Below, one piece after another: positions 8,458 through 39,140 of a stretch of DNA of 42,715 nt; position 1 is the stretch's first letter; each line of letters opens with the position of its first letter. A model generated the notes under the pieces. That model did not search any database. It saw only the letters and a program-made list of their open reading frames with translations, and was not told the DNA's origin. The position numbers and the translations under genes were made by a program. This stretch comes from Paraclostridium sp. (lineage in GTDB: Bacteria; Bacillota; Clostridia; Peptostreptococcales; Peptostreptococcaceae): contig NZ_JBOFKN010000029.1 in NCBI RefSeq assembly GCF_051657365.1, positions 1 to 42,715 on the forward strand, read 5' to 3'.

Positions 8458-11400
8458 GTGAAACAAGATGAAAAAAACGTTTTAGACAGCTGTGCTATAG
8501 TTGGGTATGATAGTGGAAATATTCTATTTAAACAAGAAAATGGAATTTACTTTAGAGAGCCTATTCGTACAACTATAAGCAATGGTAGGAAAGTAAACAA
8601 TATACTTAAATGGATTTTAAACAACAAAGAAACTAATTATAGTTTGGTTGCTGATGTAAGCAATTATTTAGAGGATTTTGATTCCACATATGAAAATAGG
8701 ACGTTTTTTACAAGAGAGCATTTTTCTTTAACAGGAGGAGATGATTCGATAAGTGTAAATGGTAATTATATGGGTGGAACATCAGGAGTTAAGTATAATG
8801 TAAAGACTATAAACTGGTTTAAGTTGGAAATAAAAGACGTTGTTGGTTCAAGTGGAGACGTAACTATAATTGTCGAGTGTTGTGTTGATAATGTAAATTG
8901 GATTGAATTTGGTTCTGTAAGATTTAATGCTATGCAAGGTATAGATTTAGGAGGAAGTGGAGCGGATAAGACTCATACTTTTAACAATACTATTGAGTGT
9001 CCTAACAGGAACTTTAAGTATAGATTTAGATTTACTGGTAATGGTCATATAAGTTGTAAAGAAGGTGATCCTTGGTGGTTTAGTTCTGGAGGTGTATTTG
9101 TATTAGATGAAAAGTACATTCCGAATGAAGATATAGAATATAATGTTGGAGTAAAATCTATAACAGATTCACATATAGAGTTCACAAGAACGCTAGCTCA
9201 TAAAAATGGATTTTACGGAGAAACTAGCATTTCTAAAAGAAATCAAAAACAACATATAAAACTTTATTTAGTTTATTCTGGTAATACTAAATATGTTTTA
9301 CTTGATGAAGTTTATACAGATACATTTGTGGATAACTTGTATTTTGGACAAATAGAGGAAAGTAAGTTTTTATTAACAAAAAAGAGTGATTTAGAGATAC
9401 CGAAGTTTTCTTTAAACTCCAAAATAAAGCAATTGCTTTATACAAAGAATGATATTTATATAAATAAAAATATATTATCTAGGGGTACAAAATTATCTGA
9501 TTTTGGATTTAAAATATCTAGCAATTCATCTTTATTTGATAGTTCTTGTAATAAATTAACTGAAGATATAAACAATTCTAAATTGAAGCTTAATGTTAAG
9601 AAAGATATTAGATTTGATAATTTTATTAGTGGCATAGAAAATGAAATTGATGTAGATTTTTTAGATAATAACAATAATCTCATATTTGCATCTAAAGTAT
9701 TTTTGGACTCAACAAATAAAATTAGTGATGGAATTATAGTAGATAAAATAAAGAAAAGTAAAACTAGATATAAGGGTAGTTTAATTATATATGATTCGTA
9801 TAATGAAGAATTATTAAACTTAGTCGATTCTTTATCATCTTGTTCTAAGACTCCTCAAACAGTTTTTCTATTCTGTACTAGCAGCAATAATTCTAATGAG
9901 TTAGATTGTGTTATAGATAAAAATACAATAGGCTTCTCAGCGTTTAAAGACAATGTTATTGATAAAGTAAAAAAACAAAATGGATTTTTATTTCAAAATA
10001 TTAATTTAGCTATTGATAAAGTTGGTGAAATTGTATCTAGAAAATTATCTGAAGACACTATGAATACAGTAAATAACTTAGTAGGATTCAATGTATATAA
10101 CTTTACAAATTTGAGTACAAGTGATTATATGAATGACTATGGATATTATACAAATGAATTTAAAAATGGGTTTAATGTTAATAATCCTCAAATAACATTT
10201 ATAGGTCAATCTACTAATAATTCATTAGATGGAATAACTCAATTTGATATTTCAAAACCTTTTGAATTTGAAGCTAACTTAAATAAAATAGAAACTAATT
10301 TAACTTCTGATATGTTAAACGAAAAGAGGTTATTTCCAGGAGTCGATAAGCCGTACTATAGCGTTTCCATAGTACATAATGAGAATGTTTTATATTCTTA
10401 TATAGTCGGTAGAGATAATGTAGAGATGATTGATAACGATAACAAAAATAAAAAATATTCTATCTTTGTTGAAAACAAAAAGGTTAAGGTTAAATATAAT
10501 GAAAATTTAACTGAAAAAGATAGAGGAAAGAATAATGTGTTTATAGTTATTAAGAAAAATGATTGTATTATAAATTCTTATAAAGCTGAATTTTTAGTTG
10601 ATTATGCAGAGCCTATTGTAGATAGATTTGAACTTAATGTTTCAGATATAGTAGAAGAAACTAATTATCAAGGTAAAAATGAATTGGTTTATTCTAAAGA
10701 TAATTTCTTTAAAGTTAGCATGAACCTAAGTGCTAATTATGAATTTAGAAAAGGAGAATATCAATTAGAACTTAGATATTCAAAAAATAAAAATTATAAA
10801 ATAATAAGGCCACTTGAGGGATATTATCAATCTAAAATATATAATATTCATTTGGACGAGTTATCAAACGAATCAGCTCCAGATGAGAAAATAAAATTTG
10901 GTGATTGGGAATGTATGCTTGTTAGAAATAGATATAGTTATTCTATAAAAAATTCAACTCATAATATTCCTTTGGAAATAGATAATGCTTTAAGTATAAA
11001 TGCAGTTCCTATGGAACCAGACTTTGATGATTTTCAAAACAATGGTTTACAACAAGGTAAAGATGTATATATAACGTTGAAATTAATAAATTCTGATTAT
11101 TATAAAAAAATAAAAGATATTATAACTTTTGTTAAAGAAGTTAGATTTTTATCAAATAATGTTGATTTTACATCTAAACAAGGATATTTCACTTATTTAG
11201 ATGAAAATAAGCTAGGTTCTGATAATTCTTTATCATTTATAACAGCACACCAAAATTCGTTAACTCTAGATAATAGGAACGAAATGAGATGGTTTATAAG
11301 TGGTACTTCTGAAAATGAATCAAATAGATTTCTTAATAGCATAGCTAACTTAGATTCTGGATCTAAGAAACCTAAAAATATAAAAATAAATTTAGTTTTA

Positions 11401-14400
11401 TTTACAGGTGAAATAATAGAAACACAAACTGTAACTATAGGACACGCAGGAAAAGTTGCTGCTCCAATTTTATTAGGAACTTCAGAGCATTTAGATAAGC
11501 TTAAAATGTTAGAAGCTAAAAAGAATGGAGTAACAGTAGATCAATTGACTCAAGAACAGTTGATAGCTATTGATGAGTTATGGAAACAGTTGGGTACATA
11601 TAACTACAATAACCAACATATAATAAATGGAGTTAAAACATTTGCTTTTTATTCTAATTTAATGGAAATGAAATTTGATTTTGGAATAGCTGAGTATTAT
11701 ACAATATCGCAAGCCAACAATAATACAGAGATGTTGCCAGTTACAAAAGATGGAGTTGTTAGATATATAATAAACCAAGATGGAATAGATGAAAACGGAA
11801 AAGGTATTTTAACAATAAAAGGATATGTTAAGTTAGCAGATGGTACTATAAACTCTTCTAATGAAGTTGTAATAACTTTTTATAGAAAAAGATTTCCTTC
11901 AATGGTTACTACAGGTGATGATTATACAAAATATGTATTTTATGAAAAAGATTCAAGTGACTATTACGCATTGAAAACTGTTATACAATCAGAGTTGAGA
12001 TTAGAAAATCTTAATGGAACTTATGACTCATCAAGAATAGATCATATAAAAGTTGAACTTGTAGATGTTGATAAAAGAACTGTTATTGCTGAGGGACCAA
12101 TAGTTAAATTTTATGATGGGTTTGTTCCTCAAAGATTTATATTCGATACGGGTTTAACTGATGATGATTTAAATAAACTAAATCCTGAAGAGAGATTCCC
12201 AATAGAGAATACAAAGGAATATATAGAACTTGAAAAAATATTAAATGATAAAATATTTAAAGATGGAAGACACCTAGGGCAAATATTTTATTTGAGATTT
12301 AAAGCAGTAGAATCTATCAAAGATGCTTATGATGTCGTTAAAGATATAAATGGTAAGGAGAGCTTTTATCCAATAATTTTTACTGAGAAATTAGAAGAAT
12401 TAAAGATAATCCCTTCAAATGGAATAATAGTTATAGATAATGATAATAATCAAGATTTATATACTTATAAAAATAAAGTTGCTTTTATGTTAGAAAGTAA
12501 CAATGCTGAATACTTTATGTATAGAACTGATAGAGCTGCAAGTTTTCAAAAAGTTTATCCTAAGAGTGTAGGATACTCGAAGCTACTAAAAATAGTTGTA
12601 TCAACTTATGATGTAGGAAATCACTTCCTAGAAGTAAAACAGAAGGCTGAAGGTGAACCAGAATCTAATGTTTATTCAGTTATTGTTGAAAAAATAAAGC
12701 CGACATCACCACCTAAAATATCAGGTGATGATTTAATAGATGAAAATGCAAAATGGTTATTACATCCAGTAGATAATGCTCTAAAGATAAAAACTAGCAT
12801 AATAACAGGAGATTCTGAACATTCTCAAGTTGTTTCTAGTGCAATGCCTTATGAAGTTTACATTCAACCAGATAAGAATCTAGATATAGGTTATCACGCA
12901 GTTAAAGCGATAGCAGTTGATAAAATAAACAATGAAAGTGAACCAACATATTTTTTAACAAAAAAGATAGGACGTCCAATAGCGTCAAATGTTATAGGAA
13001 CTGAAAAAACTTCAGATAATGTAATATCTTGGGAATGGGAATCTCAACATTTTGATGGTGTTAAAGAATATTTAGTTGAAATAAATGGAATTGAAAAAAC
13101 TATAGTTCCAGTAAATAGGTATGGAACAACTGAATATTATATGAGATTTTTCCAAGGTAAAGAGTTAAGTGATGGAACATACGAAATAAGAGTATGGGCT
13201 GTAAATGAACTTGGTAACAAAAATTACATGAGTTCAGATTTTATAACTAAAAAAGGAAGCAAAATAAAAGAATTATCTGTTGAAATGTATAAATTTAAAG
13301 ATAATTATACCAATAGACTAGAAGCTAAGATAGTTACCGAAGATAAAGCTATAAAAGAGTTTGAATATGATATTCTTAGAAATGATAACGGTAAAATAAC
13401 TTCTGTAACAGGAACTATGAAGACTAATCAAAAGATTTTACCTTTTATAATGGAAAATGGAGAGAAAGTTATTTTAGATGATGGTACATACTATTTAGCT
13501 GTTAGAGCTATAAACTATATAGATGAAAAAACTGACTATGTTAGAATACCATTCATATTCAAGAAAACTCCTCCAGATAAACCATACATATATTTTCAAA
13601 GGTTGTTAAAAAGAACAATACCACTTGTATTTGTTAAACCTTCTACTGAGATACCTATTCTAGCAATAGAAATAAAAATAGGAGATAAACCTTTTGAAAA
13701 AGTTAGAAATAACGTATGGAGACCTAATTACAATTTACCTTTAGGAATAAATAATATCCTTATTAAAGTTACTGATTATGCAGGAAATCAATCTGAATTT
13801 TCAGACTTTATAGAGATAACAAATAAAGGTGTTAATATGTTCCAGGAAGATTTTGTAGTTGATATGAGTAATCCAGTATTAACATTTGATTTTAATTTAC
13901 CTGAAATGATAGTTTATGGCCATACTAATTTTTTAGTAGAAAATGAACAACTTGGTGTTTCAGTTGTAGTTGATGTTAGCAATGCAAATAATATAGAGAT
14001 ACCTCTAACTTATTCTAACGATAAGATTCTGCCACCAGATGGTGTATATCCATTTGTTATAAAGTTATATGATTCAGATTCTAAAGAATATTCTTATATA
14101 GGTGATGTGTTTTATGTAACTATAGATAGCTACGAACCTATAAAACCTTATTTTTTGAATAGTGGGTATTCAAATATAGAATATAATAAGTTTTATACAC
14201 AGAATAGGAATCCTAAATGGTTATGGCAAACTAGACAAAATATAGATGAATTAAAAGAATTTATTGTTAATTTATATGAGTTTTCTAACAATGAGAATAC
14301 TTATGTAGATTATGGTACTGGACAGTTTAAGGATTATTCAACTAAGTTGATAGGACAATTTCAAGTTCCAGGAGATTTAGCAGATGGATCTTATAAACTT

Positions 14401-16860
14401 ACTGCAAAAGTTATTGGAAAGAACGGTCTTGAAAGTGCTAATGAAGAGTTTACATTTGTTGTTAAAAATAGTTTTCCTGCACCACCACGTTTCGATTTAA
14501 ACAATCCAATAAATAGAAAATATGAAAATAGAAATAAAAATGTTATGTGGAAGTGGGAAGATACTAATAGTAATTGGGACGAATTCGTCTCTTATAAAGT
14601 CAAAATAAATGATGAGGAATTTACTGAAGAATTTTCAGCATCAAAAACATATTATGAAGAAAAAAGAATTTTAAAAGATGGACCTAATAAAATAATGGTT
14701 ATAGGAAAGGATAAGGCAGGTAACTGGTCAACGGCAAATGAAACTACTGCTGGAATGCTTGGAGCTAATTATTTATCTAATACAAAGATGATAGATACAT
14801 CAAATCCAATACCTCTAACAGATAAAGATATAAAGGTACTTATAAAAGATTCTTCTACTTTTGAAATTTTCTTTGAAAGAAAAAAAGCAGATAATGAATA
14901 TTATATGTTCGAATTAATATCTCCGAATTCAGATGGAAATGATATAAAGTTTGTAGTTGGAAATACATTAGATAAAACATTTACTGAAGAAATATATTTT
15001 AGAGAAGAAAAGGTTATTCCAGGGTTAGAAATTGGAGAATTAAATGGAAAGCTAGGTTATTGTGAAATAAAAGATAACTCAGATACAGAAGATGATAAGA
15101 GTTTATACTTTACAAACCTATTACCTAATACATATACATTTGTTGTTAGCACTATAGATTATGCAGGAAATAGTTCTCAAATTTATACGAAAGTAATTGA
15201 ATTGAAAGATTTAACTAGAATAAAACCAGTATTTGTATATCCAAAAGAAACGTACACAAATAATAATACAATAATATTCCAATGGATATTAACTGCTGAT
15301 AATATAAAAAATTGGGAATATCAATTAACAACTCCATATAATTCGAGTGTTGCTGATTTAGTTAATCCTAGTAAATGGAGAAGTTTAAATGAGAATAGCT
15401 TCAAGTTGAATAATATACCTAAAGTTGTAGCAGGTAATGATGCAGATGGAGAATATACATTCTATGTTAGAGCTGTATTTGATGAAACAGTAGATGAGGC
15501 TGGTACAGGTCAAATAGTAAATAAAAAATCTGATATCTCGTCAATAACTGTCGTTCTTGATAGAAAAATACCAGGAGGAATAATTTTTACAAATAAACAA
15601 TTCACTACTGATAATTCTGTATTGAGATGGACTTGGGACTACACTTCATCTGGAGATATAGCTAGTGGAACATATGTTACATTTAATCCGAATTTACCAA
15701 TTACAGAATGGGAAAAAATAGAAAATAAAAAAGAGTATGAATCGTATCAAGAAAGAGAAGATGGTGTTTACACTTTATATGCTAAGACTTTTGATTTAGC
15801 TGGGAATATAAATAACACTATATACGAAAGTACAATAGTGTTGGATAGAATACCGCCGTTTAAACCTATTATAAATGGTGGAAGCAATATATTTACAAAT
15901 ATAATTCCAACAATTTCTTGGGAAAATGATTTAAATTATTTTAGATATGCTTGGCTAGTTATGACGATTGAAGAGTTCAATGCTTTTAAATCTGTTTATG
16001 ATAGACTTGTTAATAATGAAAACTATACATTAACTAATCATGATTGGAAATTTATTTTTTCTAAATCAGATATTGATAAAAATAATGTAAATGAAAGTAT
16101 AATTGAATTAGAAAGTCTATTTAGGAAAAATGAGTTTTTAATTGAAAATACAGTAACCATAAATAAGACTATATCTAAAAATGGAATATCAGAGGAAGGA
16201 AGCTATGTATTTATTCTAAGCGGATTTGATCCAAGTAATAACTGGTCAGAAGAGTTTGAATACCAATTTATAACTTACGACATAACTGCTCCTGATGTTA
16301 CTCTAATGAGATTTATAGAGCCTACATATGTAATAACTGATGAAAGACGTCCTAGATGGGTATGGGAAGTTCCTTATGATGTAACTAGATGTGAATATGT
16401 ATTAGAAAAAAATGGATATTCGGATGGTAGTATTGTAGGAAGTATAACCAAAGCAGCAGATGATGGAATATCTAATATTACTTATGAATTTAGACCTCAG
16501 TTCAATTTAACTTCTGGTAATTACAGATTGGTTGTCAATTGTTATGATTCTTCTAATAACTACGTTCAGATTAATAAATCAATTACATTAGAGACTGATA
16601 GTTCTTCACTTGAAAAAGAATTCCAAGATATTATTTTACCTGGACAAAATAATAGAATAAGAATTCAGAAAAATAAATACTCAGATACATATATTATAGT
16701 TGATATAGATATAGATAAAAATTCAACATTAAGCTATAGACTTATAGATAAAAATTCAAATAACAAAGAGTTTTTAATTTATGAAATAGGTAAAACTGAG
16801 CTTCAGATGAACTTAGAATATGAATTTAATATATTAACGTATAATATAGAAATTAATTAA
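8458..16860 (+). CDS. Giant structural protein (2,800 aa). Cys/Trp-containing N-terminal beta-rich region, with a C-terminal half of about 12 tandem fibronectin-type-III-like repeats. Probable tail/baseplate host-interaction protein.
   Basis: 8.4-kb uninterrupted ORF with GTG start at 8458 and AAGGAGAG RBS at 8441-8448. Repeated W..W ... Y.(I/L)(R/A)V.A.D.AGN.S patterns such as YEIRVWAVNELGN, VTDYAGNQSEF, TIDYAGNSSQIY and FDLAGNINNT. Confidence 0.85.
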   Translation: MKQDEKNVLDSCAIVGYDSGNILFKQENGIYFREPIRTTISNGRKVNNILKWILNNKETNYSLVADVSNYLEDFDSTYENRTFFTREHFSLTGGDDSISVNGNYMGGTSGVKYNVKTINWFKLEIKDVVGSSGDVTIIVECCVDNVNWIEFGSVRFNAMQGIDLGGSGADKTHTFNNTIECPNRNFKYRFRFTGNGHISCKEGDPWWFSSGGVFVLDEKYIPNEDIEYNVGVKSITDSHIEFTRTLAHKNGFYGETSISKRNQKQHIKLYLVYSGNTKYVLLDEVYTDTFVDNLYFGQIEESKFLLTKKSDLEIPKFSLNSKIKQLLYTKNDIYINKNILSRGTKLSDFGFKISSNSSLFDSSCNKLTEDINNSKLKLNVKKDIRFDNFISGIENEIDVDFLDNNNNLIFASKVFLDSTNKISDGIIVDKIKKSKTRYKGSLIIYDSYNEELLNLVDSLSSCSKTPQTVFLFCTSSNNSNELDCVIDKNTIGFSAFKDNVIDKVKKQNGFLFQNINLAIDKVGEIVSRKLSEDTMNTVNNLVGFNVYNFTNLSTSDYMNDYGYYTNEFKNGFNVNNPQITFIGQSTNNSLDGITQFDISKPFEFEANLNKIETNLTSDMLNEKRLFPGVDKPYYSVSIVHNENVLYSYIVGRDNVEMIDNDNKNKKYSIFVENKKVKVKYNENLTEKDRGKNNVFIVIKKNDCIINSYKAEFLVDYAEPIVDRFELNVSDIVEETNYQGKNELVYSKDNFFKVSMNLSANYEFRKGEYQLELRYSKNKNYKIIRPLEGYYQSKIYNIHLDELSNESAPDEKIKFGDWECMLVRNRYSYSIKNSTHNIPLEIDNALSINAVPMEPDFDDFQNNGLQQGKDVYITLKLINSDYYKKIKDIITFVKEVRFLSNNVDFTSKQGYFTYLDENKLGSDNSLSFITAHQNSLTLDNRNEMRWFISGTSENESNRFLNSIANLDSGSKKPKNIKINLVLFTGEIIETQTVTIGHAGKVAAPILLGTSEHLDKLKMLEAKKNGVTVDQLTQEQLIAIDELWKQLGTYNYNNQHIINGVKTFAFYSNLMEMKFDFGIAEYYTISQANNNTEMLPVTKDGVVRYIINQDGIDENGKGILTIKGYVKLADGTINSSNEVVITFYRKRFPSMVTTGDDYTKYVFYEKDSSDYYALKTVIQSELRLENLNGTYDSSRIDHIKVELVDVDKRTVIAEGPIVKFYDGFVPQRFIFDTGLTDDDLNKLNPEERFPIENTKEYIELEKILNDKIFKDGRHLGQIFYLRFKAVESIKDAYDVVKDINGKESFYPIIFTEKLEELKIIPSNGIIVIDNDNNQDLYTYKNKVAFMLESNNAEYFMYRTDRAASFQKVYPKSVGYSKLLKIVVSTYDVGNHFLEVKQKAEGEPESNVYSVIVEKIKPTSPPKISGDDLIDENAKWLLHPVDNALKIKTSIITGDSEHSQVVSSAMPYEVYIQPDKNLDIGYHAVKAIAVDKINNESEPTYFLTKKIGRPIASNVIGTEKTSDNVISWEWESQHFDGVKEYLVEINGIEKTIVPVNRYGTTEYYMRFFQGKELSDGTYEIRVWAVNELGNKNYMSSDFITKKGSKIKELSVEMYKFKDNYTNRLEAKIVTEDKAIKEFEYDILRNDNGKITSVTGTMKTNQKILPFIMENGEKVILDDGTYYLAVRAINYIDEKTDYVRIPFIFKKTPPDKPYIYFQRLLKRTIPLVFVKPSTEIPILAIEIKIGDKPFEKVRNNVWRPNYNLPLGINNILIKVTDYAGNQSEFSDFIEITNKGVNMFQEDFVVDMSNPVLTFDFNLPEMIVYGHTNFLVENEQLGVSVVVDVSNANNIEIPLTYSNDKILPPDGVYPFVIKLYDSDSKEYSYIGDVFYVTIDSYEPIKPYFLNSGYSNIEYNKFYTQNRNPKWLWQTRQNIDELKEFIVNLYEFSNNENTYVDYGTGQFKDYSTKLIGQFQVPGDLADGSYKLTAKVIGKNGLESANEEFTFVVKNSFPAPPRFDLNNPINRKYENRNKNVMWKWEDTNSNWDEFVSYKVKINDEEFTEEFSASKTYYEEKRILKDGPNKIMVIGKDKAGNWSTANETTAGMLGANYLSNTKMIDTSNPIPLTDKDIKVLIKDSSTFEIFFERKKADNEYYMFELISPNSDGNDIKFVVGNTLDKTFTEEIYFREEKVIPGLEIGELNGKLGYCEIKDNSDTEDDKSLYFTNLLPNTYTFVVSTIDYAGNSSQIYTKVIELKDLTRIKPVFVYPKETYTNNNTIIFQWILTADNIKNWEYQLTTPYNSSVADLVNPSKWRSLNENSFKLNNIPKVVAGNDADGEYTFYVRAVFDETVDEAGTGQIVNKKSDISSITVVLDRKIPGGIIFTNKQFTTDNSVLRWTWDYTSSGDIASGTYVTFNPNLPITEWEKIENKKEYESYQEREDGVYTLYAKTFDLAGNINNTIYESTIVLDRIPPFKPIINGGSNIFTNIIPTISWENDLNYFRYAWLVMTIEEFNAFKSVYDRLVNNENYTLTNHDWKFIFSKSDIDKNNVNESIIELESLFRKNEFLIENTVTINKTISKNGISEEGSYVFILSGFDPSNNWSEEFEYQFITYDITAPDVTLMRFIEPTYVITDERRPRWVWEVPYDVTRCEYVLEKNGYSDGSIVGSITKAADDGISNITYEFRPQFNLTSGNYRLVVNCYDSSNNYVQINKSITLETDSSSLEKEFQDIILPGQNNRIRIQKNKYSDTYIIVDIDIDKNSTLSYRLIDKNSNNKEFLIYEIGKTELQMNLEYEFNILTYNIEIN
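12690..16580 (+). repeat. Array of about 12 tandem FN3-like domain repeats (about 90-130 aa each) inside the 2,800-aa gene
   Basis: Periodic recurrence of the FN3 hallmark residues: Trp in strand B, Tyr in strand C, and a Y.xVxAxDxAGNxS F/G-strand motif. Repeats are diverged at the nucleotide level. Confidence 0.6.
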
Positions 16861-21953: not shown

Positions 21954-24900
21954 TTTGCCTAAAAAGATTTTAGATATAGAAAAAATAGGAGAAAAGGGTA
22001 AGCTTGAAGTTTCTTATTTGAAATTAATTTTAAAAGAACTTTTATATGATATAAAGCTCGAATCTGAAAAAACAGATGATTTTAAACTGGATATTTCAAT
22101 AATGCTTGGATTACTTAATGATAAAGGCATTATTTCAAAGGAAGAGTACGAAGAACTTAAAGACAAAATAAGTTCTATAGTTGGGGATAATTCTAATGTT
22201 GATTCCTCTCTTGGAGATAGTGGATTATCTGATGAAGTGAAAGAAGAGATAATAAGAAAATCTTCATTTAAAGGTTTTTTTAAGACGTACGAAGGATTAA
22301 TTGCACAACATCCAAACGAAAAATGTAAGCATGGAGATTTTGCATATGTAAAAGATTTTGAAGCTGGAAGATATGATATTAATGCAATAACTGAATATAT
22401 TTATGATATTAAATTTTCTAAATGGATGGTAGCTAGTGATGAAACTGTTTTAAGAAACTTTAGACCAAGAGTAGAGAATTCTAATAACAGAAATGTAGAA
22501 CCTCTTGATAAAGATATAATAATGTACAATCAAGCTATTAAAAGATGGTTTTCTGTAACTTTAGAGGAAGCTGATATAGCTAGAAATTCAGTGATGTTAT
22601 CTCATATAAGTGATAGAGTAATTATAGAAAAAGATGATAGCTCTATAAATCAAGAAGCTAAGATAAATGATGGAAGAATAATGGTCCTTTCTGATGAAAA
22701 TTCAAATCCATTGAGACACCCTTCTCATATAAGTAATTTAGATGTTAGTAAAATTGTTAATCAAATAAATGATGATTATTATAAAACTATAGTTTTAAAT
22801 ACATTTTTAGATCAATTAGGAGTTGAGAGGATAGAAGTAGATTCCAATGACGTTGATTTGTATGGTAATGATATTCAAAAGAATATCACTAATAAAACAT
22901 TAAGAATGATTTTATCTAAAATTTATGAAGGATTTGATAGAACATTTAATATAGCTATTGATGAAAATACAAAGAGAATTATTAATGTAAATGATATAGA
23001 ACATAATAAATATATAACTAGAACCATTAGGACTTATGATGTTGATAAGTTGATATCTAGAATAAATGATGATTATTATAATTCTTTTGAAAATAAAGAT
23101 TTTACAGATAAAGCATACAGTGAATTATTAATAACTACTATTAATGAGTTTTCTTCTATTTTAAAGCTACCAGAAGGAGATTTAGAGGGTATAATAACAA
23201 GATTAGGTAATTTGTATGCAGGTGATGTCATAAGCGATTTAAACGAAGAATACAAAGAATATGAGAATAATAAAAATGTTTCTGTAGAAATTATGAGAAA
23301 GATTATCAAGACATTAAATTACTTACAAATATCTAAAGATATTTTGAGAGATGAACTTCTTGAGAGAGATAACATAATAAATGGAGATAAAAATTATACT
23401 GGAAATATAGACTTCAGTGGTATTACATCTTATATAAAATCTAATTCAAAGTTTGTTGAATTTTTAAATATACTTGGAGAAACCATAAATAATCACAAAA
23501 AAATAACATTTGGAAATACTTCAGGTGAGACTATAAACAATAATAGAAATGTTATATATACTAATGAAACTGGTAAAACAGAAAATAATCATTTCAATAT
23601 AAATTTTACAAATGAAAATGGAATAATGGATATAAAATCTAAAAATATAAATTTATCAAATGAAGATTTGGAACTTAGCATAAAAGGTATTACTAGATTT
23701 TTAGGTGATGCACATTTCTTTGGAAATATGTATATTTCTGATAGTTCTAAAATAGTTGAAGTTAATGCTGAAAAAGTTACATACAAAGATAATATTTTGG
23801 AATTAAACAATGGAGAAAAAGGAGCTGGAGTAACATTTGGAAAATCTGGTATGTATGTTGATAGAGGTCAATCTAAAGACTACTTTTTTGGATTTGATGA
23901 AATAAGGGACGAATTCGTCACAGGATTTGTAAATGATGAGTCTAATGAATCTATAGCTAATATCAATCCAGTTTTAAACAGAAGCAATTCAGAAATGTTG
24001 GAAAATTTAAAACCTTTCGTTTGGGATGAACAAAACAAAAGAGCTATAACAAGTTCTAATATTGATTTAGATATAAATGGCTGTATAAATTTTAAGATAA
24101 CTGTCCCGAATCACTCATTTAAACTATTGGATGTCGTTAGATTTCAAGATACAGATTTAGTTTTATCTAATTGTAATTCTTTAGATGAATCTATAGTTGT
24201 TGGTATTGTATCAAAAATTAAAGGTGATGATGTTTATGTAGCAACTAGCGGAATAATACCTTTAGTTATAAAAGGCATTAGTAGTGGAACTGTTTTATTT
24301 CTACAACCAGATGGAAGTTTAGGAATTGATAATTCTCATTTGATTTCAAAAGAAGTTGCTATCCAAAGTGAAAATGGAATAATAATAAATATTCAAAAGT
24401 CAGCAGAATTAAATAATTCTTATACTTCGTATCAAACAAATCATAACCTTAAAAAATTTGATGCTGTTATTATGGATGATAATGGATTTTTAATAAAAGC
24501 AAGCAGTGAATTTATAGAAACAGCAGAAGTTTTCGGAATAGTTTCAAAAGTTACTCAATATTCTGTACAAGTTGTAACATCAGGATTTATAGAAGGAGAA
24601 TTAGTTAGTCCTATTGGATCAACTTTATTTTTACAACATGATGGAGGAATTTCCAATCAGAAAGATTCTAATATTGAAAAAGCTATTGGAACTAAAGTTA
24701 ATTTAGGAATTTATGTAAACATAAAACTAGGAGTTAAAAAGATTGGAATTAAGGATAAACAAATTGTTACTGAAAAGCATAATGAAACAAATAGTCTTGT
24801 TGAAATAAAAAGTAATTATAAATTTAAGACAGGAGATTTATTAACACTAGAAGAAAGTGGTAAATATAATAGTTTTGACAATGTTAAAAACTCACCAATC

Positions 24901-27458: not shown

Positions 27459-27511
27459 ACTTTCCGTCGTGACGGAAAGAATAAAAAGTGACGAATTCGT
27501 CACTTTTTTTT
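27459..27511 (+). terminator. Tandem double terminator: CTTTCCGTCGTGACGGAAAG hairpin, then the perfect 18-bp palindrome AGTGACGAATTCGTCACT followed by a T-run
   Basis: Two consecutive inverted repeats immediately after the stop at 27451, the second followed by TTTTTTTTT. The second hairpin carries the over-represented GACGAATTCGTC motif. Confidence 0.7.
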
Positions 27512-33738: not shown

Positions 33739-34224
33739 ATGAAAAAAATATTTATGTTATTGTTTATGTTTTCTTTATTTGGATTGTCAAAGGCTGATGT
33801 TTTCATGAAAGAAGATTTTGTAAATTTAAGTATTGGAATAGAAACGACAAAGGGATTTTCATTTCCTGTTACAGTTGAATATGGAAAAAAAATTGAGATA
33901 AACAGAAGTGTATCAGAAATAAATTTAGTTGTTGGAAATCAAATTAAATTTATGGATGAACAAAATGACTATTCGAATTTTTATACAGGAGTAGGAATTC
34001 CTTTTTATTTAAAACATAAAATAGAAGAGTTGCCTAATCATGTTATGCCTGTATTTAGAATAGGATTATCTAGTGATTTAGATTCTAAAAGTAATGGCTT
34101 ATATATAGCTAGTGGTCTTAGATTTGGTGATGAAAAATATTTAGAAATTCTATTCGAAGGAGAGGATTCTAAATATAGAAATTCTCTTGGTATTGGTTAT
34201 AAATTTAATGAAATAAAATTTTAA
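33739..34224 (+). CDS. Small secreted beta-barrel outer-membrane protein (161 aa), OmpX/Ail/Lom-like moron candidate
   Basis: N-terminal signal peptide MKKIFMLLFMFSLFGLSKA. Alternating amphipathic beta-strands. C-terminus ...LGIGYKFNEIKF ends in Phe (OMP beta-signal). Lies right after the fibre genes, as lom does in lambda. AAAGGAGAAAT RBS. Followed by a terminator. Confidence 0.55.
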   Translation: MKKIFMLLFMFSLFGLSKADVFMKEDFVNLSIGIETTKGFSFPVTVEYGKKIEINRSVSEINLVVGNQIKFMDEQNDYSNFYTGVGIPFYLKHKIEELPNHVMPVFRIGLSSDLDSKSNGLYIASGLRFGDEKYLEILFEGEDSKYRNSLGIGYKFNEIKF

Positions 34225-34251: not shown

Positions 34252-34401
34252 TGTTATAATGTGAATTATCTAATATATGGTTGAAAATAAATTATGTTGT
34301 TAGCTATATTGATGACATAGAATATTATATATTTTGAATAAATATATTTATAAAGAAATTAGAGTATACAGTTTAAAATTAAAATAACTGGAGTGTGTAT
34401 A

Positions 34402-34893
34402 ATGGTAAGGAAATTAAAGAAATCTAACAATGTTGAAATGTTAAAAAAAGCAGAATCAGACATGAAGATAATTAATGAAATGAATGGAATTGAAATTCTT
34501 TCAGATGAAAATGGAAATTGTAATAATTGCAATCACTGCTGCAGTATAGTAACACTGATATCAAAAGATGAATTAGAAATTTTGGCTAGTAAACTTACAA
34601 ATGAGATAATAAATGATTTTGTAGATAGAATAAATAAAGATGGAATAAAACATGTTAGTTTTTGTCCATATAGTTATCCAGAAAAAGGATGTGTAATATA
34701 TAAAGATAGACCTAAAACGTGTGTATCATATCATTGTAATCCTGAAAAAATGAATTTTGAGTTAGCTATTAGATTTACAAAAAAAATGGAATCACAAGGT
34801 GGAGGAGTGCCATTATTTGAGATTTTTCATAAGAAAAATCCGTATTTATACGTTAAAATAAAAACGAATCTTAGAGAATTGAGAATAATATAA
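34402..34893 (+). CDS. YkgJ-family zinc/iron-chelating domain protein (CxxCxxCC motif)
   Basis: CNNCNHCC motif plus downstream Cys (FCPY, CVIYKDRPKTC, YHC) typical of the UPF0153/YkgJ family. ATG 34402 with GGAG 8 nt upstream (track start GTG 34393). Own AT-rich upstream region. Confidence 0.6.
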   Translation: MVRKLKKSNNVEMLKKAESDMKIINEMNGIEILSDENGNCNNCNHCCSIVTLISKDELEILASKLTNEIINDFVDRINKDGIKHVSFCPYSYPEKGCVIYKDRPKTCVSYHCNPEKMNFELAIRFTKKMESQGGGVPLFEIFHKKNPYLYVKIKTNLRELRII

Positions 34894-34900
34894 ACTAATA

Positions 34901-34931
34901 AAAAAAGGCACTCAAAAGAATGCCTTTTTTT
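34901..34931. terminator. Bidirectional rho-independent terminator AAAAAAGGCA-loop-TGCCTTTTTTT between convergent genes
   Basis: Hairpin flanked by an A-run on one side and a T-run on the other. Sits between the + gene ending at 34893 and the - gene ending at 34930. Confidence 0.55.
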
Positions 34932-36450
34932 ATTGATTTTCAATTTCTACTTCAGTTTCATTTTTAAATAAAGTTATGTTTTCTTCAGGTTTTATAGTTA
35001 AAGGTTTTAATTCTGCAAATACTTGTTGCTCTTTGTTATTACCTGTTAGATTAATTTCTGGGAAGTTAAGACCTCTAGCTAAATCATTAGCCATTTTAAT
35101 CATAGGAATACTAGATACAAGATTATTTACAGTAGATCCTATTTCACCACCAATAGCACCTCTATTATCTTCATTACCATTAGTTATAACATTAATACTA
35201 TCAATAGTAATATTATTCATAGCATCTACATAATGTTCAGTTAATTTAGGAAGAGTTTCCATTAATTTAATTTTTAAAGCTCCATCAACTCCATATATTT
35301 CAACTAATCTTTTTTCTATATCTACTCTTTTAGAGAAAGGTAAAGTTTCAGCAGACGCATTAGCTTCAGCTTCTAGCTTTATAGCTTTAGCATTAGCCTC
35401 AGCTATAATTAAAGTCTTATCAGCTGTAACTTTAGCTATTTCTAGTTCGTTTTCTGCTGTTAATTTGTTAGCCTCGTTTTCTATAGTTATTGAAGTGATT
35501 TCTTCAATTCTTTTTTCTTCTAAAGATAAAGAGTATTCTTTTTTTATTGTTACTATTTTTTCATCTGTTATTTCTTGTTTACTTTTTTCATCACTTAACT
35601 CTATTTCTTTTTTAGAATTTATATTATTTAATTCTATTTTCTTTTCAGTTTCTATTTTGATATTTGATTTTTTAAGAGATGTATTATATTCAAGTTCAGC
35701 TATTTCAGCTATTTCTTTTTGTTCTGCTGCTGATTCGTCGATTTTATATTCAACAACTTGTTTAGTTTTTTCTGAATTTGTTTTAGCTATAGAAACTTCT
35801 TTTTCTTTTGTAGAGTTGGCGATAGCTGTAGCTGAATTTTTTTCTTGTTCAGCTATAGATATTTCAGAGCCAGATCTAGCAGCAGCACTAGCTTTTTTAC
35901 CTAATTGTTCTACTATTCCATCAAGGTCTTTTATCATTTTAATATTGAAATTCATTAAATCTAAACCAAACTTACTTAATTCAATTTCAGTAGATTCAGA
36001 AACTTTTTCCATTAATTTTTTTCTATTTTCTAATAAGTCTTCAAAATTCATTTCAGAAACTATTGATCTTAATTGTCCTGTTAAAATTTCTTTAACTAAT
36101 GCTACTGTATTTTCTTGTTTAAAGTTAAGTAATCTTTCAGTAGCTACTTTTCTTTCTTTTTCTTCTTTGGATACAGCAAATGTAGCATCAGCTTCAACTT
36201 CTATTCTTATTTTATCCTTAGTTGCAACTCCTGAATCTTCATCAAGTGCTATGTCTAAGTTGTGTGGGTTAAGACTCATAAGTTTATGACTTTGTAAGAA
36301 TGGAATAACAAATAGTCCCTTACCTTCTAAAACCTTTGTTCCACCTATTCCATACCTAACAAGCAAACTATCTGACGGGCATTTCTTGTATGTGCTTAAA
36401 ACAAGTCCTGTAGCTACTGTTGCTGTTGCTCCTAAAATTAATCTTATCAT
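34930..36450 (-). CDS. SPFH/band-7 (flotillin/YqiK-like) membrane-scaffold protein (506 aa)
   Basis: N-terminal hydrophobic segment, then an SPFH core (…GGTKVLEGKGLFVIPFLQSHKLMSLNPHNLDI…). Long Ala/Glu/Lys-rich coiled-coil (flotillin EA-like) region. GGAGGAAATAA RBS before the ATG at 36450. Confidence 0.75.
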   Translation of the reverse strand: MIRLILGATATVATGLVLSTYKKCPSDSLLVRYGIGGTKVLEGKGLFVIPFLQSHKLMSLNPHNLDIALDEDSGVATKDKIRIEVEADATFAVSKEEKERKVATERLLNFKQENTVALVKEILTGQLRSIVSEMNFEDLLENRKKLMEKVSESTEIELSKFGLDLMNFNIKMIKDLDGIVEQLGKKASAAARSGSEISIAEQEKNSATAIANSTKEKEVSIAKTNSEKTKQVVEYKIDESAAEQKEIAEIAELEYNTSLKKSNIKIETEKKIELNNINSKKEIELSDEKSKQEITDEKIVTIKKEYSLSLEEKRIEEITSITIENEANKLTAENELEIAKVTADKTLIIAEANAKAIKLEAEANASAETLPFSKRVDIEKRLVEIYGVDGALKIKLMETLPKLTEHYVDAMNNITIDSINVITNGNEDNRGAIGGEIGSTVNNLVSSIPMIKMANDLARGLNFPEINLTGNNKEQQVFAELKPLTIKPEENITLFKNETEVEIENQ

Positions 36451-36460
36451 TTATTTCCTC

Positions 36461-36859
36461 CTAAATTCTTTTTGAAATATTCCCAGATACACTATTTGCA
36501 TTTCCTATTATTGATTTGCAATTTATATTACCTGAAACTGTTGTTGCAGAATAAACATCACCTTTAATAAACATTTCACCGCTTGTATTTTTTAAGTAGT
36601 TAACGTTTCCATCAACTTTAATTTCGTTGCATCTATCTACATCAATTTTTTCTACCAATCCATAAACAGCAACGTTAATTACTTTTTCATCTTTATTTTC
36701 ATGTTTAAGTTTCTTACCGTTTATAAAAATATTTCCATTATTTATTTGTAAACTTTCTATATCGTTATCTATTCTTATAATATTTCCATTTATTTTAATG
36801 ATACCTTTTTGTTTTTTCTTGTACTTTTTGAAAAACTTCGTTATCACCTTTAGAATCAT
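36461..36859 (-). CDS. Bactofilin-like beta-helical repeat protein (about 133 aa)
   Basis: Repeats of (V/I).G(N/D)(V/I)... such as VDGNVNY, IKGDVYS, VSGNINC, IIGNANS and VSGNI, as in DUF583/bactofilin. Preferred start ATG 36859 with AAAGGTGA RBS (track GTG 36868). Stop is 10 nt before the flotillin start. Confidence 0.55.
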   Translation of the reverse strand: MILKVITKFFKKYKKKQKGIIKINGNIIRIDNDIESLQINNGNIFINGKKLKHENKDEKVINVAVYGLVEKIDVDRCNEIKVDGNVNYLKNTSGEMFIKGDVYSATTVSGNINCKSIIGNANSVSGNISKRI

Positions 36860-36870
36860 TTTTATCACCT

Positions 36871-37692
36871 TTAACTTTTTTGAGACGAATTCGTCTCTTT
36901 TAATTTTTCTTTAATTTTATTCATTCTGGAACAAGCATATGAATTTAATCTTTTGTATAAAGGTTTATTTTCAAAAAAGAATCCATATAAATCTTTAGAA
37001 ATAAAACTATTAAATATAGTTTGTTCTAATGAAAATAAATCCATGTAAGAAGTTACTGTGTTAAGTTTGGTGTTAATTGTATTTATATACTCTTCTTTTA
37101 TAGTTATATTTGAATTGGTAGTTACATATACACTATCAGCTAAGATATTCCAATGGTTCTCTATTTCTTCTTTTTTGTAGTGATGAAGTAATTGTTTTTT
37201 TAATTCATTTATATGTCTTCCATTTTTTATATAATATATAACTAAATCAAATAATGTTTTATTTAAATTAGGAATAAGACTGGTAAAATAACAATCTATT
37301 TCTTTTACATTATTATTTGATAGTATATTTAATAATTTTAATGAAGCTTTTAAATTTCTTTCGATTGCAAATTCATCAAAATATATCTTTTCTCCAAAGT
37401 TTCTTCTAGGTCTTAAAGCACTTTCAAAACTAAGAATAGCAACATCAATTATTCCTATCTTTGTTTTTAATTTTAAGTGGCTTAAAGATTTTTTTATAAC
37501 TTCATCAACATAAAAATTACAGCAAATTATATCGGCTATATTTTCTCTATTAACAGTTATAATGCTAATTTTATTTTTTTTATTTTTAATAGCATAAGTT
37601 AAAGCTTCATTAACTAAATTATGACTCTTTCCACTTCTCCTTGAACTATGAATTAGATTTAATGATATTTCTTTTGAGTTATTTCTTTTCAA
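36871..37692 (-). CDS. Hypothetical protein (273 aa) with a P-loop-like SRRSGKSH segment
   Basis: TTG start at 37692 with AAGGA upstream, and no internal ATG until near the C-terminus. Overlaps the upstream gene by 14 nt. The 3' end contains the palindrome GAGACGAATTCGTCTC. Confidence 0.6.
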   Translation of the reverse strand: MKRNNSKEISLNLIHSSRRSGKSHNLVNEALTYAIKNKKNKISIITVNRENIADIICCNFYVDEVIKKSLSHLKLKTKIGIIDVAILSFESALRPRRNFGEKIYFDEFAIERNLKASLKLLNILSNNNVKEIDCYFTSLIPNLNKTLFDLVIYYIKNGRHINELKKQLLHHYKKEEIENHWNILADSVYVTTNSNITIKEEYINTINTKLNTVTSYMDLFSLEQTIFNSFISKDLYGFFFENKPLYKRLNSYACSRMNKIKEKLKETNSSQKS

Positions 37693-38047
37693 TTTTTTTT
37701 CCTTTTTTATTGCTCTTTAATACAGATAGAACACCTTCTAAATTCATAAGTATTAACAATTCTCCAGTTTCATCATTTTTCCAATAGTCTTTACCAGAAT
37801 AAATATTAACCATAGCTAATTTATTTTCTAAGAACATTCTCATTTCTTCTGGTAAACTTCTACTAACCTTAACTATTTTAGCTTTAGTTATACTTGGAGC
37901 ATCTTCATCATCAAAGTAAACCCCTTTGCTATTTTTAGAATTTTTTTTAGCTATTATTTTAGGATCAAGCATATGAACTAAAATAGTTCCACAAAGTAAA
38001 TCATCTATTTCCTGAACTTTTATAGATGCTTCTCTAGACATAAACAT
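37679..38047 (-). CDS. Small hypothetical protein (about 123 aa), faint GroES/co-chaperonin-like pattern
   Basis: Preferred start ATG 38047 with GGAGG 8 nt upstream. The track start at 38113 adds a hydrophobic, RBS-less extension. The GroES-like call is weak pattern matching only. Confidence 0.55.
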   Translation of the reverse strand: MFMSREASIKVQEIDDLLCGTILVHMLDPKIIAKKNSKNSKGVYFDDEDAPSITKAKIVKVSRSLPEEMRMFLENKLAMVNIYSGKDYWKNDETGELLILMNLEGVLSVLKSNKKGKKIEKK

Positions 38048-38163: not shown

Positions 38164-38844
38164 ATGGAAAAGAAATACATAGAATTTGGAATAACAGGAA
38201 TATTGTTAGGAACTACAGTTCATTTTTTGAAAAATTACTTTACTAATAAAATAAATTCAGCTAAACAATCAGATGATATTAAAACTGATGGAGAAAAAGT
38301 TAAATTAAATCAAAATAAAGAACTATTTGATTTATTCAAACAATCTTATAGAAAGCAAGAGGATAAAATTTCCAAGTTTGAAGTTGAGTTAATAGAAATG
38401 AAAAAGATGATAGCCGATAATTCTTATATGGGAAGTGATGATTATAGACTATTCATAAAAACTTATTTATCATTAATGTTCCACAATATCGAAAATGAAC
38501 TTAGGCTTATTGTTGAGAGAAATAATATAAATGAAACTACATTAGATTTGACGAATAAAAAGATAATAAATTTTATTGAAAGATTAACTAATGATAGTTT
38601 AACTTCTATTGATAAAATTCATTTCTATAGAAATGTAATAATTAAAACAACGAGCCTTATATCTGGGCAAAAAGAATATATAATTTCTGTTTACTCAGGA
38701 CCTTTTGAAGAATATACCAAGTCTACTAAAGATTCAGTTGCCAAAAAAGATGAGGCTTTAAAGAATATAAGTGAAATTACTAAATATTTATCAAATAAAT
38801 TAATAGCTAGTTTTCAAGATATAATGAAGACCGAAATATATTAA
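38164..38844 (+). CDS. Hypothetical membrane-anchored protein (226 aa)
   Basis: ATG with AGGAGATG RBS. N-terminal hydrophobic segment GITGILLGTTVHFL. Transcribed divergently from the minus-strand operon. Confidence 0.7.
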   Translation: MEKKYIEFGITGILLGTTVHFLKNYFTNKINSAKQSDDIKTDGEKVKLNQNKELFDLFKQSYRKQEDKISKFEVELIEMKKMIADNSYMGSDDYRLFIKTYLSLMFHNIENELRLIVERNNINETTLDLTNKKIINFIERLTNDSLTSIDKIHFYRNVIIKTTSLISGQKEYIISVYSGPFEEYTKSTKDSVAKKDEALKNISEITKYLSNKLIASFQDIMKTEIY

Positions 38845-38885
38845 AAATAGAAACTGCCATAGTATCATTATATTTTCTAATTTTT

Positions 38886-38899
38886 GGTGGGTGGGTGGG
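38886..38899 (+). other. G-quadruplex-type motif GGTGGGTGGGTGGG
   Basis: Four G-runs separated by single T, read directly. Conspicuous in a very AT-rich context. Lies in a convergent intergenic region. Confidence 0.4.
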
Positions 38900-38928
38900 A
38901 AATTCCATCCGCTAAAAAAATAAAAAAA

Positions 38929-38980
38929 AAGAGCACACATGCGATATAGGTTTCCCTAAATCCAACTTGCTCTTTTTTTA
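38929..38980. terminator. Bidirectional terminator region (AAGAGCA...TGCTCTT stem flanked by A-run and T-run)
   Basis: Inverted repeat with long A-run (38911-38930) on one side and T-run (38972-38979) on the other, between convergent genes. The loop is long, so the exact structure is uncertain. Confidence 0.45.
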
Positions 38981-39140
38981 ATTGACGTAAAAAAATAAAA
39001 TAAGTTTCTAAATTTTTATAAGAAACGAAAGTTTTATAAGTGATAAACTTTATTACGGTATATCTCACTTATAGAATTTAAAAATCAATACTCTCAAAAC
39101 ATATATATTATAATAACATAATGTTTAATAATTTACAAAT

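Follow-up and report, generated by a model that had tools for sequence, protein, structure and literature searches.

The 42,715-nt contig NZ_JBOFKN010000029.1, filed under Paraclostridium sp. (assembly GCF_051657365.1) and analysed here over its full length (the window), carries a minus-strand unit of four genes, p1 to p4, of which the last encodes a predicted flotillin-type protein of the SPFH family. The unit is a real phage operon, conserved in relatives and centred on a flotillin gene that has a very rare ATPase gene pair, p1-p2, as its constant neighbour. The open reading frames (ORFs) lie as a sequence-only reading of the window, made by a model, had described them: co-directional, tightly packed or overlapping, and convergent to a block of structural genes. 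The unit and this block share a terminator.

38113-38085, minus strand: sigma-70-type promoter (TTGAAA, 17-nt spacer, TATAAT)
38047-37679, minus strand: p1, 122 amino acids (aa)
37692-36871, minus strand: p2, 273 aa, TTG start
36859-36461, minus strand: p3, 132 aa, with an alternative GTG start at 36868
36450-34930, minus strand: p4, 506 aa
34897-34934, both strands: bidirectional intrinsic terminator with a 17-bp stem between an A run and a T run, common to this unit and the plus-strand block

The genes p1 and p2 overlap by 14 nt, and gaps of 11 nt and 10 nt separate p2 from p3 and p3 from p4. Good Shine-Dalgarno sequences precede p1, p3 and p4, and the homologues of p3 begin at the ATG of 36859. 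The promoter ahead of p1 matches 11 of the 12 sigma-70 consensus positions, and its exact pattern occurs only twice in the window. Its -35 and -10 hexamers are invariant when the region between p1 and a divergent 226-aa gene is aligned across the six lineages described below. At the other end of the unit the terminator folds with an energy of -22.3 kcal/mol (z -6.4). This layout speaks for one transcription unit that starts at a host-type promoter. All four genes are real and under purifying selection, since the ratio of non-synonymous to synonymous substitution rates (dN/dS) against the homologous locus L010 is 0.23 for p1, 0.13 for p2, 0.20 for p3 and 0.06 for p4.

The overlap of p1 and p2 sits in an A-rich tract, AAAAAAGGAAAAAAAATTG (37679-37712). 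The overlap has the same length in L010 and L013, and the two genes only lie side by side in L015, L022 and L024; in every lineage the junction is either a 14-nt overlap or a spacing of at most 3 nt. A programmed frameshift fusing p1 and p2 was considered and rejected, as it would need a +1 shift and would have to reckon with the three lineages in which the genes only adjoin. Translational coupling would be the simpler reading of this arrangement.

The SPFH label given to p4 is borne out by a match to Pfam Band_7 (PF01145) over residues 38-204 (score 71.9 bits, cut-off 23.6, E 8.6e-20). The protein also aligns with positions 51-458 of the 477 positions of the NCBIfam FloT profile (E 3.4e-30). 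Its FloT score of 105 bits is far under the equivalog cut-off of 700, and p4 is therefore a member of the family and not a FloT orthologue. The chains of human flotillin-1 and -2 solved by cryo-electron microscopy in the PDB align to residues 40-447 (E 1.2e-14 for flotillin-1), and the Pfam model Flot (PF15975) was not reported for p4. Residues 1-19 are hydrophobic (Kyte-Doolittle 1.67), and Glu, Lys and Ala abound in residues 205-380. From these matches p4 appears to be a full-length flotillin-type SPFH protein with a predicted N-terminal hydrophobic anchor. Its earlier likening to HflK/C did not survive: p4 fits flotillin models, FloT is its only NCBIfam match at E<=0.1, and the HflK and HflC models give none. 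It barely matches phrog_200 (E 0.09), a family of short SPFH proteins found in 662 of 50,697 phage records (~1.3%). The novelty that had been proposed for an SPFH gene on a mobile element is lost with this count; a phage-borne SPFH/flotillin module as such is already known.

The second gene had been labelled a P-loop NTPase, and this label stands. The Walker A, Walker B and motif III residues of p2 are invariant and the fold is RecA-like; in the family alignment H15, R18, R19, G21, K22, D106, E107 and T137 stay unchanged even in members as low as 24% identity. The AlphaFold2 model is confident for the N-terminal half. The C-terminal half is helical, with a predicted local distance difference test score (pLDDT) of 40-62; where this half is conserved it holds a single invariant acidic residue, and the protein ends at residue 273. 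The closest relatives of p2 in structure and in sequence are terminase ATPase domains and helicases: it reaches 20 bits against Terminase_6N (cut-off 22), and the best family member reaches E 9e-6. As p2 has no nuclease domain, no PHROG match and no tblastn match in the 50,697 phage records, it is terminase-like in fold and not a terminase. The model and alignment suggest a single RecA-like P-loop ATPase of the additional strand, catalytic glutamate (ASCE) class, of terminase/helicase type, with a helical C-terminal half. The family is very small, with four representatives at 50% clustering among 1.84 billion proteins. A match of p2 to the PADLOC model HEC-01B (17 bits) was found only in the two closest of five family members and was judged compositional.

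For p1 the label of a GroES-like protein fails at the level of sequence. Pfam, PHROG and NCBIfam gave no match, nor did PDB, where a search with the family profile returned no chain at E<=10. No family member matches Cpn10 (PF00166) at E<=5, and BLASTP against an E. coli GroES sequence gives no alignment. The strand pattern of p1 can be overlaid on that of GroES by eye, and hhalign finds the same register with a probability of 0.1%. Homologues of p1, at 33-94% identity, always lie directly before p2.

The product of p3 belongs to phrog_3163. Its model has a basic amphipathic helix at the N-terminus followed by a short right-handed beta-helix. None of 12 family members matches bactofilin/DUF583 (PF04519) at E<=5, no Toastrack model of Pfam is matched either, and a profile search against PDB sequences returns no bactofilin at E<=10. 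Of the description as a bactofilin-like beta-helix protein, the beta-helix is thus right, as far as the model goes, and membership of the bactofilins is not supported. By identity to L010, p3 is the fastest-evolving gene of the operon. Lone p3-family genes are found in unrelated phages. In Escherichia phage TL-2011b, gp23 (3390-3737 of locus L020) is such a gene, alone and reverse-oriented between terL and the head-tail adaptor gene, which is a classic moron position; in locus L011 a p3-family gene lies between the terminase and portal genes. Taking the four protein labels of the sequence-only reading together, those of SPFH protein and NTPase hold, that of beta-helix protein holds for the fold only, and that of GroES fails.

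Relatives of the locus were gathered from protein collections and Logan/ENA contigs. They make up six lineages of one uncultured phage clade (L016 is a fragment of L024), in which a further gene, beyond the coordinates of the four-gene unit, recurs on the other side of the promoter.

38164-38844, plus strand: 226-aa gene, divergent from p1

The six lineages are arranged as follows, with identities to the window proteins.

Window: 226-aa gene (divergent), p1, p2, p3, flotillin
L010 (p4 95% identity): arrangement as in the window
L022 (p4 70% identity): arrangement as in the window
L024 (p4 48%, p2 25% identity): p1, p2, flotillin after 24 nt; no p3
L013 (p2 30% identity): p1, p2, convergent 293-aa SPFH gene (phrog_200, E 7e-65); no p3
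L015 (p2 27% identity): p1, p2; the contig ends just past p2

A homologue of the 226-aa gene diverges from p1, and p2 follows p1 immediately, in all six lineages. Past p2, directly or behind p3, an SPFH gene follows in each of the five lineages in which downstream sequence is visible. In the window, L010, L022 and L024 it is a flotillin gene on the same strand; in L013 it is instead the phrog_200 gene on the opposite strand, and most flanking genes of L013 have no detectable counterpart in the window. The conserved unit would thus consist of the 226-aa gene, p1-p2 and an SPFH gene, with p3 as a probable lineage-specific insertion in one sub-lineage. The co-occurrence that had been proposed for the SPFH, bactofilin-like and 273-aa proteins is conserved for the p2 and SPFH genes (5/5 lineages) and not for p3, which is missing in L024 and L013 and stands alone elsewhere.

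The 226-aa gene and p4 are under the strongest constraint against L010 (dN/dS 0.04 and 0.06). Homologues of the 226-aa protein, always in the same divergent position, are 92% identical in L010, 76% in L022, 51% in L013, 37% in L016/L024 and 27% in L015. Its N-terminus is moderately hydrophobic, the remainder is helical by eye, and neither Pfam nor PHROG holds a family match for it. The idea of an i-spanin was dropped, no embedded or adjoining o-spanin or lipoprotein ORF being present. On its far side, 296 nt (38845-39140) without a convincing ORF separate the 226-aa gene from the next minus-strand gene. Nothing came back from blastn of the operon against the 50,697 phage records, from scans of IMG/VR for close relatives of p4 and p3, or from profile scans of IMG/VR, JGI metagenomes and GTDB genomes for the families of p2 and p1.

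The flotillin subfamily of p4 is more widespread than its partners. It occurs at 41-49% identity in other settings, all of them without homologues of p1, p2 or p3. On large-phage contigs of a Clostridium type the related flotillin gene lies beside genes for helicases, ribonucleotide reductase and ThyX, and on a third phage backbone beside DNA ligase and RtcB. In Fusobacterium ulcerans it is a stand-alone chromosomal gene. The flotillin therefore does not need p1-p3. Small proteins encoded 5' of the flotillin in the Clostridium-type contigs were checked and are not homologues of p1 or p3. As for the possibility that the four genes are ordinary chromosomal ones, the linkage of p1-p2 with an SPFH gene belongs to a phage clade, and the flotillin subfamily by itself does extend to a chromosome.

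Two of the contigs that carry related flotillins deserve a remark of their own. In the Clostridium chrysemydis metagenome-assembled genome (MAG) contig L003, which is 134 kb long and looks like a large phage and not a chromosome, the gene for the anaerobic ribonucleotide reductase (NRDD) is interrupted by a GIY-YIG endonuclease gene and falls into two ORFs (10905-13879). Contig L017 (JBKEBA010000022.1), from a MAG labelled 'Dysgonomonas sp.', has the genes MatE, flotillin, LytTR regulator, kinase and CstA in the order of the Fusobacterium ulcerans locus, and its MatE and flotillin ORFs share identical N-termini with those of L007; the contig probably represents Fusobacterium DNA that was mis-binned.

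The p4 protein is 100% identical to an 'SPFH domain-containing protein (plasmid)' of Cetobacterium somerae, whose gene lies on CP143322.1, a record of 188,661 bp deposited as a plasmid (assembly GCA_036324545.1). The whole window matches part of this record at 100% identity and has a G+C content of ~25%; it contains no tRNA and no Rfam match. Convergent with the four-gene unit are the following features.

95-34893, plus strand: block of structural and other genes
33739-34224, plus strand: 161-aa protein with a signal peptide, directly after the tail-fibre genes, similar to an outer-membrane protein (OMP) by eye only
34393-34893, plus strand: 166-aa CxxCxxCC (PF03692) protein, 3' of the 161-aa gene

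Between 95 and 28452 the plus strand holds very large ORFs of 1471, 2800, 1178, 660, 617 and 542 aa. The giant ORFs that were scanned have no PHROG match, and four of them gave nothing meaningful in Pfam; the ORF of 2800 aa was in neither set. The DxDGD motif is of the kind found in crAss-type virion RNA polymerases. A giant RNA polymerase was considered for the 2800-aa ORF and rejected, the motif being absent from it. Two further plus-strand proteins are clear matches to tail fibres, and the gene table of CP143322.1 places Peptidase_S74/Shufflon_N on the second. The 95-28452 block is an essentially unannotatable block of structural or injected proteins in a record labelled as a plasmid. Because of the tail-fibre matches and the giant ORFs, the 'plasmid' itself is a phage-like element. 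The mobile setting that had been suggested for the four genes is supported by the identity to CP143322.1 and by the tail-fibre genes. The locus is best read as a composite transcription unit that belongs to a large and little-characterised phage or phage-plasmid of Cetobacterium.

The related locus L022 keeps the tail-fibre side of this region without the 161-aa (OMP-like) and 166-aa (CxxCxxCC) genes. As both are missing there, these two genes look like variable cargo adjoining the flotillin operon. The position of the 161-aa gene presumably parallels that of lom in phage lambda.

A palindrome had been pointed out at the 3' end of the P-loop gene, and it is indeed there.

36882-36897, both strands: perfect palindrome of 16 nt, GAGACGAATTCGTCTC, within the 3' end of p2
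14578-14589, 23908-23919, 27490-27501 and 36884-36895: copies of its 12-nt core GACGAATTCGTC

In p2, GAGACGAATTCGTCTC can form a small hairpin on either strand (-8.9 kcal/mol, z -3.6). The four copies of the core in the window compare with about 0 expected, and every CGAATTCG in the window belongs to one of them. One copy is the stem of an intergenic terminator (27488-27503). Two others lie in frame within the 2800-aa and 1178-aa ORFs, where both encode D-E-F-V with GC-rich codons that look unusual for a genome of 25% G+C. The copy in p2 is conserved in L010 and degraded in L022. Since there are four copies in the window, GACGAATTCGTC would be a genome-wide phage motif and not a signal special to the operon. 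At the level of DNA it may mark a site of action for a regulator, for a restriction-modification system or for recombination.

We tentatively favour the interpretation that the locus encodes a phage membrane-scaffold module with a clade-specific ATPase partner, which organises or stabilises the host membrane for the phage cycle or for carriage of the element. The p1 side would be driven by the clade-invariant sigma-70-type promoter. By analogy with the solved assemblies of flotillins and other SPFH proteins, p4 would be tethered to the inner membrane of the host by its hydrophobic N-terminal segment, and its oligomers would form a dome or cage around a patch of membrane. The active-looking, single-domain RecA-type ATPase p2, translationally coupled to p1, would work with it at or on the flotillin scaffold, where the pair may load, remodel or use a client. 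In one sub-lineage p3 would serve as an optional, membrane-proximal beta-helix adaptor. Most likely, such a module would keep the host membrane organised or stable for the sake of the phage's own cycle or its carriage, and would not serve immunity. We only infer the physical interaction between p1-p2 and the flotillin, the localisation at the membrane and the biological role.

A functional link between p1-p2 and the SPFH protein is favoured because an SPFH gene follows p2 in all five informative lineages, and because this holds though the family and the strand of the SPFH gene differ. It is favoured also because the flanks of L013 are mostly unmatched and the cargo beside p4 differs between the window and L022. 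Several observations weigh against this interpretation. All six lineages belong to one phage clade, and the adjacency could be inherited synteny. The SPFH gene of L013 stands on the opposite strand, at the end of the block on the tail-fibre side, which would also suit a hot-spot for cargo where transcription converges. The flotillin subfamily of p4 is present in other phages and in Fusobacterium chromosomes without p1-p3. The closest fold relatives of p2, terminases and helicases, act on DNA and not on membranes, and the C-terminal half of the p2 model has low confidence (pLDDT 40-62).

Inherited synteny combined with insertion at a hot-spot is a serious rival because the lineages are related and the position is a cargo-prone convergence point. 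In its fullest form, which we regard as possible but doubtful, the genes are co-transcribed and unrelated in function: p1-p2, together with the 226-aa gene, would be a DNA-handling pair of the clade core, of terminase or helicase type, and p3 and the SPFH gene would be independent, envelope-related morons gathering at the convergence point past the tail-fibre genes. The terminase ATPase domains and helicases among the best relatives of p2 speak for this, as do the lone and sometimes reverse-oriented p3 homologues between terL and portal or adaptor genes elsewhere. The region between the tail-fibre genes and p4 is variable, with the OMP-like and CxxCxxCC genes present in the window and missing in L022; the SPFH gene of L013 is of another strand and family; and the flotillin occurs elsewhere without p1-p2. 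However, an SPFH gene stands beside p2 in five of five lineages, yet the common phage SPFH family is present in only ~1.3% of phage records. In L024 the flotillin gene begins 24 nt past p2 despite the fall of p2 to 25% identity, and p2, lacking a nuclease domain and a PHROG match, is no normal terminase.

The sequence-only reading had also raised the prospect of a defence or exclusion module. As a superinfection-exclusion or anti-phage system, the operon would be expressed from the resident element and act at the membrane. Such a role would suit an element that a cultured isolate maintains as a replicon outside its chromosome, a promoter of the host sigma-70 type, the moron-like character of p3-family genes and a place beside tail-fibre and OMP-like genes, which is a typical position for morons and lysogenic conversion. 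In the Vi01-like phage PhiSH19, moreover, the SPFH gene adjoins an annotated superinfection-exclusion gene (PMC3220722). We nonetheless hold a defensive role to be unlikely. There is no consistent PADLOC match, PADLOC-DB v2 giving none at all for p1, p3, p4, the 226-aa protein or the 166-aa protein, and the literature searched yielded no paper linking an SPFH protein to anti-phage defence. The core is under strong purifying selection in deeply diverged relatives, down to 25-48% identity and with an invariant promoter, and is not variable between close ones. This conservation fits a core function of the clade better than variable defence cargo.

Bacillus flotillins have been linked to FtsH, as have the HflK/C-type SPFH proteins, which cage it. 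That general fact about HflK/C is the single point in favour of the earlier proposal of an HflK/C-like regulator of FtsH that tunes the lysis-lysogeny decision, which we consider very improbable: p4 aligns full-length with flotillins and with no HflK/HflC model, the neighbourhood showed no gene for a CII-like protein, an integrase or a repressor, the related flotillins of other phages lie among genes for replication and nucleotide metabolism, and nothing links p4 to FtsH or to such a switch.

A more specific version of the favoured membrane-scaffold interpretation, and an unlikely one in our estimate, is that p1-p2 form an undescribed two-protein ATPase machine which depends on an SPFH cage, whatever its type, as a platform at the membrane, with the 226-aa protein as a third component. 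If true, these proteins together would make up a new kind of membrane device of the phage, which might for instance tether or translocate a nucleic acid or protein client inside a flotillin-delimited patch of membrane during infection or exclusion. This would also be the first function defined for phage SPFH proteins. The SPFH genes of phages have appeared in lists since 2006 with no function assigned to them (PMC1524935, PMC3220722, PMC7150955), and a paper of 2026 calls the reason for their presence in phage genomes unclear (PMC13239085). SPFH/flotillin genes are common in large phages, and the locus offers them a compact and conserved context. It makes the use of a membrane-scaffold cage by a phage experimentally approachable, with p1-p2 as candidate clients or partners. 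More broadly, a 188-kb 'plasmid' of a major fish-gut commensal turns out to be a phage-like element whose large proteins are mostly without a recognisable family.

Several described systems can be set beside the operon. The short phage SPFH proteins of phrog_200, such as MbpS of Kayvirus and the products of genes annotated as 'prohibitin-family' or 'lipoprotein' in many large phages, are like p4 phage-encoded SPFH membrane proteins, and one of them stands in for the flotillin beside p1-p2 in L013. The p4 protein differs from them in being ~200 residues longer and of flotillin type. Kayvirus MbpS sits in the lysis region (PMC7150955); near p4, unlike MbpS, no lysis genes were recognised.

The sole annotated phage flotillin in the phage collection is that of the crAss-like phage csAssE-Sib (OR575929.1; 5411-7638 of locus L001), a protein of 566 aa that is 36% identical to p4 over the SPFH domain. 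Its gene lies directly behind that of a 164-aa protein with multiple transmembrane segments and a beta-rich C-terminal tail, which is NfeD/YqiJ-like by eye and has no Pfam match. Unlike p4, this pair is found among replication genes and without homologues of p1, p2 or p3. We found no Pfam match to NfeD and no multiple transmembrane segments in p1, p2, p3 or the 226-aa protein. The idea that p1 or p3 might be such a partner in disguise was rejected, as hhalign of the two families against the NfeD-like protein of csAssE-Sib gave probabilities of <5%, which is not significant.

With the ATPase domains of terminase large subunits and the packaging ATPases of phi29 type, p2 shares the RecA-like ASCE fold. 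Its Walker A, S-R-R-S-G-K-S, resembles that of T4 gp17, S-R-Q-L-G-K-T, and the D-E of Walker B, the T/S motif that follows and the spacing of the motifs presumably agree with gp17 as well. The genes differ in place: terminases lie at the head of the packaging-head module, whereas p2 adjoins a membrane scaffold gene past the tail-fibre genes. As for p3, its model shares its general build with the membrane-targeted bactofilins and with the sub-membrane Toastrack domains (DUF4097/DUF2807/DUF2154) (PMC11237479).

The bacterial flotillin operons (FloT/YuaG-YuaF and YqiK-YqiJ) come closer. With their flotillins p4 shares the N-terminal anchor, the SPFH domain and a long, Glu/Lys/Ala-rich helical region. 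Bacterial operons of flotillin with YqiJ or YuaF sometimes include an ATPase, and like some of them p4 is co-operonic with small partner genes and an ATPase gene (PMC11237479). Unlike them, the phage operon has no partner of the NfeD/YqiJ type, the gene before p4 being that of the soluble beta-helix protein p3 or that of the ATPase; the ATPase is a single RecA-like domain of 273 aa and not AAA+; and the carrier is a phage-like element. In a role at the scaffold, p1-p2 would resemble the ATPase genes that lie next to some bacterial flotillin-NfeD operons. By this analogy, the bacterial flotillin operons with YqiJ/YuaF, and sometimes an ATPase, would be the nearest described counterpart of the Cetobacterium phage locus.

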